In this document: positions 1 to 33,689 of the stretch, piece by piece | Position numbering within the stretch: position 1 is the first letter of the stretch | How the letters are laid out: every line of letters begins with the position of its first letter | Source of the DNA: Bacilli bacterium | Lineage (GTDB): Bacteria; Bacillota_I; Bacilli_A; RF39; UBA660 | DNA: 64,000 bases | Assembly: GCA_017625395.1 (NCBI GenBank) | Contig: JAGALD010000065.1 | Span: 73,414-137,413, forward strand | Direction of reading: 5' to 3' | Notes under the pieces: generated by a model | The model's database searches: none | What the model was told of the DNA's origin: nothing | The model's input: only the letters and a program-made list of their open reading frames with translations | Position numbers and translations under genes: made by a program

Positions 1-1302
1 TATGAATTTTCTTGAATCTATTGATACTTTATCTCCAATATTATAAAAATATTTTTCTTCTACAGAAAAAGAAATACTTTCATCAGTATTTCCATTAGTA
101 TCTAAATATAAATCAGTTCTTTCATCGCTACTTCCTCTGCTTGTTGCTTGATGTTGTTCATCATTCCTACCCATTTCATTTGGTTCTCTTGTTTCATTTG
201 TTCTGTAATATTCAACTCTATTATCATCTTGTTCATAATAGTTTGAATTCTTGTTTGAGATGTCTGTTCTATCTCTTTCAAGTGTTCCACTAGAGTTCCT
301 TTCATCAACATCACTTCGTAAGTTGCTTTCTTGTGTTCTTTCAAGTATTGTAGTCTCATTATTGAATATTTGCCCATCTCGAACTGTTCCTCTGTCTGTG
401 CTACTAGATTCGGTAGAATATAATCGCCTATCTTCTTGTAAGTTAAGTTCATTATTATCTCTCCTTTCAACATGATTTCCTTTTTCATTATTATCATAAT
501 TTAATTCTTCTTTTTTATCAAATGTACGAATTTTATCTATTTCAGCAATTCGTATATTTTTTAATGATATATATATTTCTCTAATACCCATTTCAGATAT
601 ATCACTAACTGCTACACCTAATCTAGCAAGGTTATCTAAATCTTTAAAAATTGGTATATCTATAAAATCAGTATAATCAAAATATGGTTTAGGATTTATA
701 CCACTTCTATTAAGCATCATATAAGCGATACTATTTTCTAATAATTTCTTATAATTCTTTTCTATAACTCCATTATCAATACTTTCTAATCTAGTATTAT
801 ATTTGTGATCTATTAAGTCTGTTAAATAGTCTGCATAATTATCTTCCATCAAGTTAATTGCAACTGATTTAATTGCCTCTACAAAAGTTTCCTTATTATT
901 TAATTCTCCATATTTATTTTCTAATGATTCTATTACTTGTTCTTCATACACTTTAGGTACTTGCCATACCTTTAATTCTTTTCCCTTTCTTCCATAAATA
1001 CTATGGGTATCATCTACTCCCCATACATATTTAATTCCAGGTCTGCCATTATAAACTGTTAGAAGTCCAATACCAGGACAACCACTATTAATATATCTTT
1101 TATAAGTCTTATTCCATGTATCAATATCTGCACATGATACTGCTTGTGGTCTTTGAGCATAAATCAATAATTGTTCACTAAAACTATTAGTGTAATTCAT
1201 TGATGCAGTTTTTAGAAACGACTGCCAATTTTCTGAATCTTGTGATATTAAATCAATTGTTTCTTCAAATAATTCATTAACCAACTTTACTGTTGTAGCC
1301 AT
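1..1302 (-). CDS. N-terminal part (434 codons, 3' end outside the window) of a large ICE polyvalent protein: an ArdC-N-like ssDNA-binding/antirestriction domain followed by an acidic/polar low-complexity linker
   Basis: This ORF is absent from the ORF track because it has no in-window stop. I read the minus strand by hand from ATG 1302..1300. An AGGTGA SD lies 6 nt upstream and an in-frame TGA lies just upstream of that. I found no stop down to position 1. The segment ENWQSFLKTASMNYTNSFSEQLLIYAQRPQAVSCADIDTWNKTYKRYINSGCPGIGLL resembles the ArdC-N (DUF1738-type) domain. A D/E/R/N/S/T-rich linker follows, and the ORF ends in-window with EEKYFYNIGDKVSIDSRKFI. Confidence 0.6.
   Translation of the reverse strand, partial: MATTVKLVNELFEETIDLISQDSENWQSFLKTASMNYTNSFSEQLLIYAQRPQAVSCADIDTWNKTYKRYINSGCPGIGLLTVYNGRPGIKYVWGVDDTHSIYGRKGKELKVWQVPKVYEEQVIESLENKYGELNNKETFVEAIKSVAINLMEDNYADYLTDLIDHKYNTRLESIDNGVIEKNYKKLLENSIAYMMLNRSGINPKPYFDYTDFIDIPIFKDLDNLARLGVAVSDISEMGIREIYISLKNIRIAEIDKIRTFDKKEELNYDNNEKGNHVERRDNNELNLQEDRRLYSTESSSTDRGTVRDGQIFNNETTILERTQESNLRSDVDERNSSGTLERDRTDISNKNSNYYEQDDNRVEYYRTNETREPNEMGRNDEQHQATSRGSSDERTDLYLDTNGNTDESISFSVEEKYFYNIGDKVSIDSRKFI
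102..452 (-). CDS. tnpV: TnpV-like transposon-encoded protein (116 aa from the internal Met of track ORF 102..497), nested out of frame inside the ORF 1..1302
   Basis: The translation is MNLTYKKIGDYILPNL...MGKYSIMRLQYLKEHKKATYEVMLMKGTLVEHLKEIEQ...ITEQMKQENQMKWVGMMNNIKQQAEEVAMKELIYI. It matches remembered TnpV family hallmarks (GDYLIP, YLKEH, LL.G.L..HL.EI, ITE.LK, W...MNNI, E.IY). A strong SD, AAAGGAG, sits 8 nt upstream of ATG 452. Confidence 0.6.
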   Translation of the reverse strand: MNLTYKKIGDYILPNLVAQTEEQFEMGKYSIMRLQYLKEHKKATYEVMLMKGTLVEHLKEIEQTSQTRIQTIMNKMIIELNITEQMKQENQMKWVGMMNNIKQQAEEVAMKELIYI

Positions 1303-6423: not shown

Positions 6424-7401
6424 CTACCTTTCTTGCCCATTTCTTTCTCGCATTTTTTTGAGATATTTGTCATACCATTTGACAGCTTTGATAACATACT
6501 CCTCTCGCTCTCTATCATTTCTCAAATTAGATGGGAGTACAGATTTTAATTTATTCATACTTACTCGTAAAGTTGGAGTTTGATTTGGTTTTTCTTCATT
6601 AAGTAAATCTTCCATTTTTTCTACTGTAAATGTTTTACTTTGACTCATCTCTTTTAAATCTATCGCTTGTGATTGAGATGGTGTTATTTGATAAAAGTCT
6701 ATATAATCTAACAAACATTCTTGTTCTTCTTTTGTTAAATATGAAATCTCTACTGCTGGACTTAATGCGATACTTAATTTTTCTTTATCTTTTAAGACAG
6801 AGTTATCAACATATTCTAAAAGTTTTGGTAATAGATATGTTAATCTTATATATCTTCTTATTTTATCTTCACTTTCTCCTACTTGTTCTGCGACAACTTG
6901 TCTTGATGTTTTAGACTTCTGTGCAATTTCAACAGAAGTTAAATCATTTCTTTTTCCTTGATGACTTAAAGCCTCCAGTTTCATTTTATAAGCAAATGCT
7001 TTTTCACTTGGTAATACCTTTTCTCTTTGCATATTACTGTCAACCATTATAATTGTAGCTTCATCATCAGTTAACTCCCTAACAATACATGGGATAGTAT
7101 CCATATTTGCAAGTTCACTTGCTTTCTTTCGTCTATGACCTGAAATCATCTCATATTTCCCATTATCTTTTTTTCTTACAAGTGCAGGAGATAATACTCC
7201 CTTTTCTTTAATACTTGTTGCCATGTCTTTTAATTCATCATTGACAATAACTTTAAATGGATGGTCTGGGAAGTCATCAATATCATTTAATTTAATATTA
7301 ACTACTTTTTCTAAATCTGCCTCATCTCTAGTCTTTTGATTAGTGAACAAATCATCTAGCGATGGTAGATACATTTTTTCGCTTTTCTTTTCCACTTTCA
7401 T
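6424..7401 (-). CDS. parB: ParB-like partition/nuclease-domain protein (ICE-borne)
   Basis: It has the ParB N-terminal box (VLSPALVRK...YEMISGHRRKKASELA) and lies directly downstream of parA. The real start may be the internal Met at 7374. Confidence 0.85.
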   Translation of the reverse strand: MKVEKKSEKMYLPSLDDLFTNQKTRDEADLEKVVNIKLNDIDDFPDHPFKVIVNDELKDMATSIKEKGVLSPALVRKKDNGKYEMISGHRRKKASELANMDTIPCIVRELTDDEATIIMVDSNMQREKVLPSEKAFAYKMKLEALSHQGKRNDLTSVEIAQKSKTSRQVVAEQVGESEDKIRRYIRLTYLLPKLLEYVDNSVLKDKEKLSIALSPAVEISYLTKEEQECLLDYIDFYQITPSQSQAIDLKEMSQSKTFTVEKMEDLLNEEKPNQTPTLRVSMNKLKSVLPSNLRNDREREEYVIKAVKWYDKYLKKMRERNGQER

Positions 7402-10242: not shown

Positions 10243-10315
10243 GGTATCTCCTCACTATTCTTTGATAATTTGATAATAGCATAAAAGGTTTTTTTAGTCA
10301 AATTATATAATTAAA

Positions 10316-30517: not shown

Positions 30518-30976
30518 TTATATCCTTTTTTTTGCATTTATTCTCTTTTTAATAATTGATTCTAGTCTTGTTGCTCTATAAATTTGGTTATCTAGTGAAA
30601 GTTTCGATGTTTCCACAAGAATTTCTTTATCATTATTAAATACTATTTTTGAATTTTTTCCACATTTTTCAACTTTTTTTATGCTGTTTAAATTTATCCA
30701 ACAGCAATCATCTAATAATGATGATTTAATAGGAAAGAATATTAAACAACTACTTTCTTCTACTAGTATTGGAAGTTTATAACTACATTCTAACATTGAT
30801 TTTGCAGCTTTAAGTCTTCCATTGTAACTACTTCCGTAATATTGACAACTTTCATCCATCACATTGTATGCATCATTATTTACTAGATATTCACATTCCT
30901 TTTCGATAATTCTAGTTTTTCCAACGTGTTCTGCTATTACAGCATATGTTTCATCATTAATTTCATAATTTTCCAT
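30518..30976 (-). CDS. comK: ComK-family competence transcription factor homologue
   Basis: YAVIAE...IIEKECEYLVNNDAYNVMDESCQYYGSSYNGR...YKLPILVEESSCLIFFPIKS...CCWINLNSIKK...NQIYRATRLES aligns along its length with remembered B. subtilis ComK (IIEKDCVFYVN...DRSCRFFGSSYAGR...KPPIMVD...FLFPTLS...CGWIS...NQVYRTAWL). Confidence 0.7.
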   Translation of the reverse strand: MENYEINDETYAVIAEHVGKTRIIEKECEYLVNNDAYNVMDESCQYYGSSYNGRLKAAKSMLECSYKLPILVEESSCLIFFPIKSSLLDDCCWINLNSIKKVEKCGKNSKIVFNNDKEILVETSKLSLDNQIYRATRLESIIKKRINAKKRI

Positions 30977-31066
30977 AAAATAATATCCCCCTTTTGAAAA
31001 TTATATGGGTAATATTATCATTAATTTTTATCGAAATTTGTCTAATTTTGTTTGGAATTGTTATTT

Positions 31067-32197
31067 TTAGTATGTTCTTATTGGTACAACTAGTTGAATT
31101 AGACCATCTTCTTTTTTATTTTTTATAGTTATAGGTTTAACTTCTCCTACAAAAGATAGTTCTATTTCTTCTGTATTTAGTGCATTTAATGCTTCCATCA
31201 TATATTTTGCGCTAAATGCTATTGTGATATCTTCATTATTATCTTTTTTAACAGTCATTTTCATTTCTGCTTTTCCTTTTTCATTAGCCACTGATCTAAC
31301 TGTTAATAAATCTCCATTTGTTGATAGAGATACTATATTTTTTTCTTTATCTGTTGTTAAAATACTTGCTTGCCCTATTACATTATATAATTGAGAAAGA
31401 TTTGCTGTAATTTTTAATATAGAATCTTCTGGTATAAGTTTTGAAGTATTTGGATAATTTCCACTTATTAACCTTGATTGAAATAGTAAATTATCTTGTT
31501 CAAAAAGTATTTTATTATTAAATATATGTAATTTAATATCACTCTTCTTTTCATCAATTATTCTGCTAAATTCTACTAAATTTTTACCTGGAATAATTAT
31601 ATTATAAATTTCTTCAACTGGTTTATTAAGTCTTAATTCTTTTTTAGCTAATCTATATGAATCTGTTGCACTACATTCTAAAATATCTCCATTTATTTTA
31701 AAACTTATACCTGTTAATACTGCACGTGATTCATCTGTTGATGTTGCAAATGCTGTTTCTTTAACAATATTTAATAAGTCTTCTGAATTAATAACAACAT
31801 GATTTTCATTTTTTTCAAGATCTACATTCGGATAATCATTTTTATTAATAACATTTAAGTCATATTTAATTTTTTCATCATCTGTATAAATTAAAACTTT
31901 GGATTCATCTATAACTTCTATATTTATTTCTTCTTCAGGAATAATTCTTACGATATCAAGAATATCTTTTCCTTGTATTATGATAACTCCTTCTTCATCA
32001 ATATTCATATTTTCATCATTAATGATTATTGTTTTTTGAATAGTAATATCATTATTAGATGCTGTTAGTGTTAATCCTTCCTTTGTTAAGTCAAATTTTA
32101 TTCCTGCTAATGTTGGAATTAAATTTTTTGTTGATATTGCTTTCGATACTTTGTTTAGATTGTCTAGTAATAAGTCTCTTTTAATTTTTAATTTCAT
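31067..32197 (-). CDS. dnaN: DNA polymerase III beta sliding clamp
   Basis: It is 376 aa with a three-domain clamp pattern, sits directly downstream of dnaA, and ends LVVPIRTY. Confidence 0.95.
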   Translation of the reverse strand: MKLKIKRDLLLDNLNKVSKAISTKNLIPTLAGIKFDLTKEGLTLTASNNDITIQKTIIINDENMNIDEEGVIIIQGKDILDIVRIIPEEEINIEVIDESKVLIYTDDEKIKYDLNVINKNDYPNVDLEKNENHVVINSEDLLNIVKETAFATSTDESRAVLTGISFKINGDILECSATDSYRLAKKELRLNKPVEEIYNIIIPGKNLVEFSRIIDEKKSDIKLHIFNNKILFEQDNLLFQSRLISGNYPNTSKLIPEDSILKITANLSQLYNVIGQASILTTDKEKNIVSLSTNGDLLTVRSVANEKGKAEMKMTVKKDNNEDITIAFSAKYMMEALNALNTEEIELSFVGEVKPITIKNKKEDGLIQLVVPIRTY

Positions 32198-32240
32198 ATG
32201 TTTATTCTCTCTTTCTTTTTTAAGTTTTTTATATTATTAG

Positions 32241-32311
32241 TGTGGAAATTGTTAATAAGTCACTTTTTCCTTGATTTTTCAATATTTTTATCAACTGTTT
32301 CTTGTGGATAA
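32241..32311. other. oriC: oriC, dnaA-dnaN intergenic part: DnaA boxes and an AT-rich candidate unwinding region
   Basis: A perfect DnaA box, TGTGGATAA (TTATCCACA on the minus strand), lies at 32303-32311, and a relaxed box, TGTGGAAAT, at 32241-32249. The spacer between them is very AT-rich. Confidence 0.6.
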
Positions 32312-32327
32312 CTTGTTAATTTAATTG

Positions 32328-33689
32328 TTAATTATGTATATCTTTTTCTAATTTATCAATAATTTCTGCAAAGTTTTTGTTATTTTTTATCTCCTGTTCT
32401 ATTTTTTCATAGGAATGTATTACAGTAGTATGATCTTTTCCTCCAAATTCCATTCCTATTTTTGGATATGATTCATCAGTTAGTTTTCTACAAAGGTACA
32501 TTGCAATTTGTCTAGGAAATGCAATATCTGCATGTCTTTTTTTAGATTTTAAATCTTCAATTGATACTTTAAAGTAATCTGCGACTATTTTTTGAATTCT
32601 ACTAACATCATTTTTTTCACTATATCCTGCATTTACATAGTCCTTTAATGCTTCAATTGCAAGTGGTAGGTCTATTTCTGCACACATCATTGTTGAATAT
32701 GCCATTAATCTGTTAACGCTACCTTCTAGTTGTCTTATGTCTGTTCCTATGTTTGAAGCCATATATTCTATTACTTGTTCTGGAATTTCTGCATTTAGTG
32801 ACTCCCCTATTATCCTTTTCTTTAATATTGCTATTTTTAATTCAAAGTCTGGGGGGTATATATTTACAGGTAATCCCCAACTAAATCTTGTTCTTAAACG
32901 ATCTTCGAAGACTTTTAAGTCGTTTGGAGATCTATCGGATGATATTATAATTTGTTTGTTTTCTCCATATAAATTGTTGAATGTATGGAAAAATTCTTTT
33001 TGCGACTCTGTTGCTCCTGCTAAAAATTGAATATCATCTATTATAAGAACATCTATATTTCTATATTTTTGTTTGAAAAAATCGATATATTCAAAATTAT
33101 TTTTATTTTCTTGTTTTTTTGTTATTTCTACAAATTCTGCAACGAATGTTTCACTTGTTACATATAAAACTTTCTTTTTACTGTTTTTTTCGATATAGTT
33201 TCCAATAGCGTGCATTAAATGGGTTTTTCCTAATCCACTATTTCCATATATAAATAAAGGATTATATGTTTCTCCAGGCTTTTCTGCTACTGCTAATGCT
33301 GCAGCTTGTGCAAATCTGTTACTATTTCCGACAATAAATGTATCAAAGGTATACTTTTTATTCAAATTAGATTCAAATGTATTTTTATCATATATATTTT
33401 CTTCTATTATGTTTTTATTTTCTTCTTCAGTTTCGTTAATTAATTCTTCTTGTATTAAGAATTCAAGTTCAACTGTTTCCCCTATTTCTTCAATAAAACA
33501 CGATGTTATTAGTTTTTTATAGTGATTTGCTAAATGATCTTTGTGTAATGCATAAGGTACTAATATTTTAGCAATTCCTTTATTTAATTCATATAATTTT
33601 GTTTCTTCAAACCAGGTTTGATATGATAATGAGTTTATTTCATTTTTAATTTTTTCTAAAATTTTGGACCACAAAAGTGTATTATCCAT
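32328..33689 (-). CDS. dnaA: Chromosomal replication initiator DnaA
   Basis: It has the AAA+ Walker A GNSGLGKTHL, the segment LIIDDIQF, and the C-terminal DNA-binding signature (FGGKDHTTVIHSYEKI). Confidence 0.97.
   Translation of the reverse strand: MDNTLLWSKILEKIKNEINSLSYQTWFEETKLYELNKGIAKILVPYALHKDHLANHYKKLITSCFIEEIGETVELEFLIQEELINETEEENKNIIEENIYDKNTFESNLNKKYTFDTFIVGNSNRFAQAAALAVAEKPGETYNPLFIYGNSGLGKTHLMHAIGNYIEKNSKKKVLYVTSETFVAEFVEITKKQENKNNFEYIDFFKQKYRNIDVLIIDDIQFLAGATESQKEFFHTFNNLYGENKQIIISSDRSPNDLKVFEDRLRTRFSWGLPVNIYPPDFELKIAILKKRIIGESLNAEIPEQVIEYMASNIGTDIRQLEGSVNRLMAYSTMMCAEIDLPLAIEALKDYVNAGYSEKNDVSRIQKIVADYFKVSIEDLKSKKRHADIAFPRQIAMYLCRKLTDESYPKIGMEFGGKDHTTVIHSYEKIEQEIKNNKNFAEIIDKLEKDIHN

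Follow-up and report, generated by a model that had tools for sequence, protein, structure and literature searches.

A tnpV gene nested in the +1 frame of a giant polyvalent-protein gene: comparative evidence for a probable overprinted pair on one strand

Can one strand of bacterial DNA encode two proteins over several hundred nucleotides, or is one of two coinciding open frames without function? This question is raised by the beginning of the window analysed here (the whole stretch of 64,000 nucleotides of contig JAGALD010000065.1 from a Bacilli bacterium), where two long frames of the minus strand are open at the same time. From ATG 1302 the larger one, the giant ORF, runs without a stop to position 1, covering 434 codons of the window. 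The smaller one is free of stops from 497 to 102, has its real start at ATG 452 and constitutes a tnpV coding sequence (102-452, minus strand; 116 codons and a stop at 102-104), which lies wholly within the giant ORF in its +1 frame, giving an overlap of 351 nt. A previous sequence-only reading had described both minus-strand ORFs, the giant one with 434 codons without a stop from 1302 to position 1, and the ORF scan and translation returned the same coordinates, frames and extent. In our interpretation the segment 102-452 very probably specifies two proteins on one strand, the linker of the giant protein and TnpV in the +1 frame; their production has not been demonstrated.

The giant ORF opens with an ArdC-like N-terminal domain, assigned by predicted fold (505-1302, minus strand; residues 1-266 of the giant polyvalent protein). 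Within 1-504 it continues as an open linker rich in R, E, N, S, T and D (about residues 267-410), which is the part overlapping tnpV, and 3′ of it the next small module begins, the ORF going on to the left of the window. The AF2 model of the N-domain has a pLDDT of 88, with disorder beginning at residue 263. Among PDB structures it resembles ArdC of plasmid R388 most closely (Foldseek prob 0.99, E 0.054), and comparison by VIA aligned it with the ArdC structures 6i89 and 6sna over 214 and 212 residues (Z 10.5 and 9.9; rmsd 4.8 Å and 6% identity for the best match), the next best structure having Z 5.4. With such a high rmsd and 6% identity, the likeness of the model to ArdC is a distant one. 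The 501-aa protein encoded by the complete ORF matched no family, ArdC-N included, in Pfam (E ≤ 1) or NCBIfam (E ≤ 0.1), hmmsearch of PDB sequences with a profile of 42 N-domain sequences gave no ArdC and only chance-level matches, and inspection of residues 1-285 of the protein (P0001) did not reveal the HExxH metalloprotease motif. Invariant residues of the domain are D154, N155, D158 and Y159. The ArdC-N-like domain claimed earlier is consequently upheld by predicted fold (Z 10.5) but not by any Pfam or NCBIfam profile.

The product of the smaller frame matches the Pfam family TnpV (PF14198) along the whole model (1-111 of 111; E=1.2e-34, 119.1 bits at a curated cut-off of 27 bits), so the TnpV-family similarity proposed before was confirmed, and profile searches did not refute it. 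Its AF2 model has a pLDDT of 89, and TnpV would be a folded 116-aa protein, composed of a beta-hairpin and helices and subject to ordinary purifying selection. Foldseek search of the PDB with this model gave nothing below E=4, and the best match of an exhaustive VIA search (Z 6.1) was within the background for helical models, which allows no conclusion on fold novelty. The profile search of PDB sequences yielded chance-level matches only, and the ESM Atlas feature search outside PF14198 no usable match.

For comparison about 90 related elements were used, the locus counts being made over 80 loci from different species, with N-domain identity of 40-73%. In 80/80 loci tnpV directly follows the N-domain at a frame offset of +1; the giant frame passes through tnpV without a stop in 79 of them and is open to the locus edge in 75, exceeding 1600 codons in most full-length loci. 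Nested tnpV is present also in plasmids of E. faecalis and C. perfringens, and hhalign (99.7%) shows that the giant protein of C. perfringens has an N-domain homologous to that of the window. The carriers include the cultured strains Anaerofustis butyriciformans HA2171, Acetivibrio mesophilus N2K1 and Thermotalea metallivorans B2-1, as well as plasmids of the p1207_3 type. The check suggested at the outset, whether both frames stay open in homologues, has in this way been passed, and a stop ending the ArdC-like ORF before tnpV, which would have refuted the pair, was found in no relative. It must be remembered that the 80 loci share ancestry and that 79/80 does not equal 79 independent trials.

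At this offset each giant-frame codon combines the last base of a tnpV codon with the first two bases of the following one, hence one rule is enough to keep the giant frame open: no tnpV codon ending in T may stand before a codon starting with AA, AG or GA. The rule is followed almost without exception. Codons ending in T occupy 1/1817 stop-prone sites of tnpV and 877/3687 (23.8%) of the remaining ones; two-fold Y-ending codons carry C at all 425 of 425 stop-prone sites, while elsewhere C accounts for 52%. The window copy itself has T at none of 37 stop-prone sites and at 16 of 78 others. When synonymous codons within tnpV were permuted, only 0.1% of 2000 trials kept the long frame of the window free of stops, the average being 4.6 stops; across loci the median probability of an open giant frame after such a shuffle was 0.017 (0.001 for the window).

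These counts bear directly on the possibility that the long frame is open merely by chance on a purine-rich, T-poor strand, the ArdC-like and helicase genes being separate genes that flank tnpV. The minus strand of the interval indeed contains 65% purine and 21% T, and the long ORF of this genome stops 204 nt outside the window. However, the third sense frame of the same interval holds 27 stops (6-30 in every locus), because of which the caveat raised earlier, that purine richness lowers the number of stops in all frames, fails to explain the open frame. Stand-alone tnpV genes have 2-22 stops in the frame corresponding to the giant one, and those of equally AT-rich genomes (contig C84 of this genome and another genome of the same genus) have 21-22; the copy on contig C84, with 21 stops, carries T at 21 of 37 stop-prone sites. 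Together with continuation of the frame in the relatives, the rarity of an open frame after shuffling and the near absence of T at stop-prone sites, this leaves practically no room for chance, which the counts have already refuted. Between the two options formulated by the sequence-only reading, a genuine overprinted pair or one non-functional frame, the read-through in 79/80 loci, the avoidance of stop codons and the different stand-alone controls decide in favour of the former. As far as sequence comparison can tell, the locus is a genuine and old nested pair on the same strand, with both frames intact and both kept by selection across relatives.

Selection acts differently on the two frames. 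Entropy by codon position (0.96/0.67/1.19 bits) has the coding pattern expected for the TnpV frame, per-frame identity tracks the same frame, and the amino-acid identity of TnpV tracks that of the N-domain. Pairwise identity of the giant frame over tnpV (0.349) is lower than that of the non-coding third frame (0.396), thus the giant frame is without amino-acid constraint in this part. A check proposed earlier, for extra synonymous-site constraint in the overlap, gave a negative result: at conserved residues tnpV and the non-overlapping N-domain have equal fractions of synonymous differences, from which it follows that the host frame imposes stop avoidance only. Over tnpV the giant frame would be a hydrophilic, disordered linker, whose sequence may drift freely as long as stops are excluded.

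One could still regard the TnpV frame as a relic without function, or as a mimic of TnpV, and suppose that only the giant protein is made, as the giant gene is all that PGAP annotates here in plasmids of E. faecalis and C. perfringens. We find this scarcely tenable in view of the full-model match of 119 bits, the confident fold prediction (pLDDT 89) and the substitutions, which follow the TnpV frame, with TnpV identity tracking that of the N-domain. Moreover, the ATG and a length of 113-119 aa are kept in 79/80 relatives, that is in all 79 with a complete copy, and the Shine-Dalgarno sequence is conserved along with the ATG. The third open frame listed in the earlier reading (251-475, plus strand; 74 codons) does exist, but it has no family match above threshold (a single sub-threshold Pfam match, E 0.041). 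The antisense frame contains 4 stops within tnpV in the window and 1.3 stops on average in the relatives, being free of them in 23/79 loci, and we judged the ORF to be a by-product, not a gene.

The signals which might direct expression of tnpV lie inside the giant ORF. A Shine-Dalgarno sequence, GAAAGGAG, read from the sequence at 461-468 (minus strand), precedes ATG 452 by 8 nt, exactly as had been claimed, and encodes Glu-Arg in the giant frame; a similar motif is located 6-9 nt upstream of the tnpV start in essentially all 80 loci. Further upstream a promoter-like site was noticed (493-521, minus strand), with the −35 element TTGATA (521-516), a 17-nt spacer and the −10 element TATGAT (498-493), scoring 10/12 consensus matches; 40 nt separate the end of the −10 element from the tnpV ATG. 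This −35/17 nt/−10 layout is common to all loci, and among 59 distinct 50-mers the information content is highest at both hexamers, the spacer having little. Within the −10 element, positions 2, 5 and 6 hardly vary, and the base which sets D/H/N/Y in the giant frame is variable. Promoter-like matches in the window are not in excess of those in shuffled sequence (16 versus 12.1 ± 3.2), and a terminator scan of 1-1700 found none. Function of the site is only inferred: tnpV would probably be transcribed in two ways, as part of the giant-gene mRNA and from this internal sigma-A-type promoter, which sits within the final codons of the ArdC-like domain, and ribosomes would begin TnpV separately at ATG 452, guided by the Shine-Dalgarno sequence in front of it. 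Both the internal promoter and independent initiation are deduced from conservation alone, as there are no expression data for either frame.

TnpV might alternatively be the C-terminal part of a fusion, produced by programmed +1 ribosomal frameshifting from the ArdC-like domain, and database proteins with the N-domain and TnpV in one frame do exist (P0023, P0025 and P0099). These come, however, from one to three metagenome contigs each, and they switch frame at differing points, like random frameshifts or assembly errors. Many loci, in addition, have a TnpV-frame stop directly or a few codons before the ATG, and the Shine-Dalgarno sequence and ATG are conserved at a fixed spacing. We consider such a fusion highly improbable, and independent initiation of TnpV is preferred.

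To the left of the window the long ORF stops after 204 nt, reaching 501 aa in total, and a 1-nt frameshift separates it from an ORF of 1861 aa in which the protein goes on. The frameshift is located at an A7 run 132-138 nt from the window edge. Two expectations formulated from the window alone are hereby fulfilled in part. A long ORF ending just outside the window had been regarded as refuting; the stop is there, but it arises only via the frameshift. Extension into helicase and methylase domains holds for the relatives, which read on into methylase and SNF2, but is split here. The frameshift stems either from an error of assembly or from a recent mutation; in the latter case this genome would not produce the host protein at full length. 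It is quite possible, if short of probable, that the giant gene is, in this genome alone, a true pseudogene due to a 1-nt deletion in the A run, the overlap being a frozen remnant and the functional products being limited to TnpV and the 501-aa N-terminal fragment. The frame change at the A7 run between the two ORFs, the lack of an obvious Shine-Dalgarno site before the 1861-aa ORF and the uninterrupted homologous stretch in relatives L007 and P0007 agree with this. On the other hand, a single-base homopolymer error in a draft assembly of 110 contigs is equally plausible, no further decay is visible (no T at the 37 stop-prone tnpV sites, and both parts otherwise intact), and the frame could be restored by low-level slippage on A7.

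If read through, the giant protein would have about 2370 aa, with the predicted order of ArdC-like N-domain, linker, small modules, N6-methylase-like region and SNF2 helicase; related giant proteins are single ORFs of 2300-3200 aa. Protein P0002 matches SNF2, ResIII and Helicase_C in Pfam, and the methylase motifs were seen by eye only, without a Pfam match. In the neighbourhood of the giant gene there are genes for a relaxase, a DUF3991-Toprim protein, a sortase and an adhesin. Judged from sequence features, the giant gene, although split here by the frameshift, meets the definition of a polyvalent-protein gene, namely several conflict-related domains in one polypeptide in the context of a conjugative element.

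As to the origin of the nested state, we infer as likely that the tnpV frame, which is folded and constrained, came first and that the linker frame was superimposed on it later. The opposite order, in which tnpV arose de novo by overprinting in the linker of a polyvalent protein and later escaped several times to Tn4451-type transposons, appears rather unlikely to us. It is nevertheless consistent with the greater diversity of nested copies (identity of 29-35% for those in C. perfringens and E. faecalis plasmids, 36-45% for free copies), with the position of free-standing copies among nested ones in the TnpV tree, and with faintly TnpV-like ORFs of 140-150 codons in the +1 frame of the linkers of more distant giant genes, the similarity to TnpV being no more than faint. 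The tree (79 nested and 18 free-standing copies, 117 columns, no outgroup) contains 6 state changes, its well-supported branches do not exclude a single one, and the order of origin stays unresolved.

The role of TnpV is not established. The "excision-accessory" function ascribed to it is an old, untested guess which finds no support in the present analysis, and in Tn4451 TnpX alone is reportedly enough for transposition, which argues against an essential role of TnpV in excision. With low confidence, we would guess that TnpV is a small DNA-processing accessory factor of mobile elements with large serine recombinases, possibly produced early together with the anti-restriction protein. The genome carries 12 large serine recombinases, therefore their co-occurrence with TnpV says little. 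The second tnpV copy of the genome, on contig C84, is free-standing beside such a recombinase; the window tnpV is without this Tn4451-type context, the nearest recombinase genes (C36:30955-33403) being about 40 kb off.

Long, fully nested overlaps on the same strand with clear selection on both frames are rare in bacteria. The one described here, conserved from Clostridia to Enterococcus plasmids over 351 nt, can be recognised by a simple and almost absolute codon rule, and it shows how genes flanking a third one can become or stay fused by reading across it. Such loci are handled wrongly by annotation: tnpV is omitted in the E. faecalis and C. perfringens plasmids, and in Monoglobus tnpV is retained but the giant gene is cut by about 1000 codons. 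Databases are consequently biased in their gene counts, in the statistics of the TnpV family and in the architectures recorded for polyvalent proteins. Elements that carry resistance often contain TnpV, a family whose function is unknown, and its fixed place beside an anti-restriction module provides a starting point for finding that function. No description of nested tnpV was found in the literature on TnpV, judged by titles, or on overprinting with conjugative elements.

Among known systems, Rz/Rz1 of phage lambda likewise consists of a small gene lying wholly in a larger one, on the same strand, in the +1 frame and with its own start, both genes being functional. The products of Rz and Rz1 act as subunits of a single complex, and each frame encodes structured, constrained sequence, whereas here the labour is split between a folded protein and an unconstrained linker needing only to stay open, the overlap is longer (351 nt), and whether TnpV and the host protein are functionally linked is not known. 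In Bacillus subtilis comS is a small out-of-frame gene within the very large multi-module gene srfAB; comS counts 46 codons, occurs in a narrow group only and relies on the promoter of the host gene for its transcription, while tnpV, with its 116 codons, represents a widespread family found also free-standing and seems to have a promoter of its own.

The giant protein shares the architecture of polyvalent proteins, in which methylase and SNF2 helicase modules come after an N-terminal ArdC-like domain (Iyer et al. 2017, PMC5512222); that paper mentions neither TnpV nor an overlapping frame. The best structural match of its N-domain is ArdC of R388, from which it differs by the absence of an ArdC-N profile match and of the HExxH protease motif. 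TnpV of the window belongs to the same family (PF14198) as TnpV of Tn4451/Tn4453 and Tn6104-6106 over its full length and is of the same size. In its classical form tnpV stands free next to the gene of a large serine recombinase (PMC3158075), a layout repeated in the C. coli plasmid copy and on contig C84, and in free-standing copies the frame left open in the window copy is interrupted by many stops. Unlike the copy of Tn4451, the window tnpV is placed inside another gene, some 40 kb away from the nearest recombinase genes.

Two reading frames of the minus strand are open together over positions 102-497, as the sequence-only reading had proposed. One belongs to the giant gene of a polyvalent protein, which by reading-frame analysis starts at ATG 1302 and meets no stop as far as position 1, and the other, running from 497 to 102, is shifted by +1 relative to it. 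The shorter frame matches the Pfam TnpV family (PF14198) over the entire model (E=1.2e-34, 119 bits at a cut-off of 27), which bears out the similarity claimed for it. The gene it contains, tnpV, comprises 116 codons (102-452) and begins at ATG 452, which is conserved among relatives; the Shine-Dalgarno sequence ascribed to it, GAAAGGAG, is present at 468-461, 8 nt upstream on the same strand. Reading-frame analysis also recovered the 74-codon plus-strand open frame reported at 251-475.

The N-terminal domain of the giant protein (N-domain; 505-1302, minus strand) was used as a profile to scan one genome per species, which gave 591 relatives, and the best 80, of 40-73% identity, were retained. 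In all 80 loci tnpV directly follows the N-domain, always in the +1 frame, and in 79 of them the giant frame crosses the whole of tnpV, so that both frames stay open in homologous elements; only in Lutispora thermophila does a stop fall inside tnpV. The giant frame is open to the locus edge in 75/80 loci, exceeding 1600 codons in most of those with full flank, and stops later, past tnpV, in 4/80. Nested tnpV was adjacent to 8/8 full-length N-domain matches in a phylum sample, and plasmids of E. faecalis and C. perfringens carry further copies; by hhalign (99.7%), the giant protein of the latter species shows homology at its N-terminus to the window N-domain. Two giant genes with related but diverged N-domains contain, in the +1 frame of the linker (the giant-frame stretch overlapping tnpV), minus-strand ORFs of 140-150 codons (L126:2042-2461 and L127:1640-2089) with faint TnpV similarity (21-22 bits against the TnpV profile built here, under Pfam's cut-off), and the nested arrangement may extend past the detection range of the Pfam model. 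At L092:4001-6271 a 756-aa version of the protein ends within the methylase motif I region, with separate helicase-fragment genes after it; it is a broken giant gene whose nested tnpV is still intact, and it is very widespread, the same protein occurring in 399 further collection blocks.

It had been cautioned that a purine-rich, T-poor strand lowers stop frequency in all frames, in which case the double opening could be fortuitous. The third sense frame over tnpV holds 27 stops in the window, hence the strand is not generally stop-poor, and 6-30 stops in every relative locus. Each giant-frame codon joins the last base of a tnpV codon to the first two of its successor, therefore a stop can arise only where a T-ending tnpV codon precedes a codon starting with AA, AG or GA (a stop-prone site). 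The window tnpV has T at 0/37 stop-prone sites and at 16/78 others. When synonymous codons were shuffled among positions within tnpV in 2000 trials, the giant frame stayed open in 0.1% of them, with a mean of 4.6 stops; the test errs on the conservative side, since the codons being shuffled are themselves depleted of T. For the 79 complete tnpV copies the median open-frame probability under shuffling is 0.017, and T-ending codons occupy 1/1817 stop-prone sites versus 877/3687 (23.8%) elsewhere. At stop-prone and other sites of the relatives, respectively, two-fold Y-ending codons carry C in 425/425 and 52% of cases, four-fold codons end in T in 0.1% and 15%, and ATT is used in 0% and 23%. Because the relative loci share descent, sites and loci do not count as independent trials; at 40-70% protein identity, however, synonymous positions have been replaced many times over. 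The double open frame is not a product of chance.

In free-standing tnpV genes the equivalent frame is interrupted. It contains 4-14 stops in four plasmid copies named 'TnpV protein' (Salmonella IncHI2, Campylobacter coli, Ligilactobacillus, Pusillibacter), 22 in a genome of the same genus and 2-22 in the free-standing copies of a 400-genome phylum sample, versus 0 in the nested copies of that sample, where the frame is open for >260 codons upstream. The second tnpV of this genome (contig C84, L125:6443-6793), which immediately follows the gene of a 417-aa serine recombinase (L125:4560-5813), has 21 stops and T at 21/37 stop-prone sites; its G+C content is 19% versus 34% in the nested window copy.

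The two overlapping frames are constrained differently. The first, second and third codon positions of the TnpV frame have entropies of 0.96, 0.67 and 1.19 bits, as is usual for coding sequence, and pairwise identity averages 0.516 for the TnpV frame, 0.349 for that of the giant gene and 0.396 for the third, unused one. Extra synonymous-site constraint in the overlap, suggested earlier as a mark to look for, was not found on comparing tnpV with the non-overlapping N-domain, conserved residues showing the same proportion of synonymous differences in both. TnpV identity follows N-domain identity through all divergence bins. TnpV is thus under ordinary purifying selection and co-inherited with its host gene, and the linker frame is selected solely for staying open. 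The linker has a high content of R, E, N, S, T and D, and confidence of the N-domain model drops from residue 263 on. Since the folded, constrained frame is that of tnpV, we favour an older tnpV over which the linker frame was laid later, the opposite order not being excluded. When 79 nested and 18 free-standing TnpV proteins were placed in one tree, the two states came out interleaved, with 6 changes; the well-supported branches are compatible with a single change.

A Shine-Dalgarno motif stands 6-9 nt upstream of the conserved ATG in 79/80 loci. In many loci the TnpV frame has a stop immediately before the ATG, which argues against expression as a frameshift fusion. Scanning the window located a promoter-like pair of hexamers (TTGATA, 17 nt, TATGAT; 521-493, minus), which is present in every locus with the -10 ending 28-43 nt before the ATG. 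Across 59 distinct sequences both hexamers are peaks of information content, with little in the spacer. Positions 2, 5 and 6 of the -10 hexamer are near-invariant and the base setting giant-frame Asp/His/Asn/Tyr is variable, the reverse of what protein-level constraint would give. This is comparative evidence for a putative internal promoter, not proof. A scan of positions 1-1700 revealed no terminator-like site.

The genome (1.49 Mb, 110 contigs) allowed 15 kb left of the window to be added. The long ORF itself stops 204 nt outside, at 501 aa in total, and 42 nt further a 1861-aa ORF begins which contains SNF2, ResIII and Helicase_C domains and, as recognized by eye, methylase-like motifs; the anticipated helicase domains do follow, though across a break. 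One extra A at an A7 run (L003:14862-14868, 132-138 nt left of window position 1) would restore a single ORF of about 2370 codons. Relatives read the homologous stretch straight through, and a motif conserved in them is encoded in the frame of the 1861-aa ORF ahead of its ATG; the two ORFs are therefore parts of a single giant gene broken by a 1-nt frameshift. The frame change may reflect an error of assembly, a recent mutation that inactivated the gene, or a sequence prone to slippage. The locus belongs to a conjugative element, since genes for a MobA/VirD2-type relaxase, DUF3991-Toprim, DUF3848, two DUF6664 proteins, a sortase and an adhesin adjoin it. Large serine recombinase genes number 12 in the genome, over several contigs; two, in tandem at 30955-33403 of the window's contig and some 40 kb to the left of the window, may stand at the far end of the same element.

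Database annotation misrepresents these loci. On the plasmids of E. faecalis and C. perfringens RefSeq annotates the giant gene alone, and in Monoglobus pectinilyticus (NZ_OY725736.1; L086:7151-14830) PGAP/RefSeq retains tnpV but has the giant gene, an 'SNF2-related protein', begin about 1000 codons late, at 10262, within a frame that is already open at 7151 and spans 2559 codons. On a Cohnella herbarum plasmid an opposite-strand hypothetical gene is annotated across the N-domain. In three metagenome proteins (P0023, P0025, P0099) the N-domain continues in frame into TnpV, the frame changing at a different place in each; these probably represent frameshift mutants or errors of assembly and account for Pfam TnpV matches on ~400-aa proteins.

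TnpV is known as a free-standing transposon gene whose involvement in excision is only postulated (PMC3158075); in the literature searched it appeared only in that form, never nested, and the polyvalent-protein paper (PMC5512222) mentions neither TnpV nor overlapping frames. Its predicted model (pLDDT 89) is a beta-hairpin followed by five helices, and structure, PDB-sequence and Atlas feature searches gave no convincing relative outside its own family. As for the ArdC-N-like domain claimed earlier, the N-domain has neither an ArdC-N profile match nor an HExxH motif, and 'ArdC-like' is therefore a statement of fold only; in fold, however, its predicted model (pLDDT 88) resembles ArdC of plasmid R388, the best PDB match (Z 10.5 versus 5.4 for the next entry).
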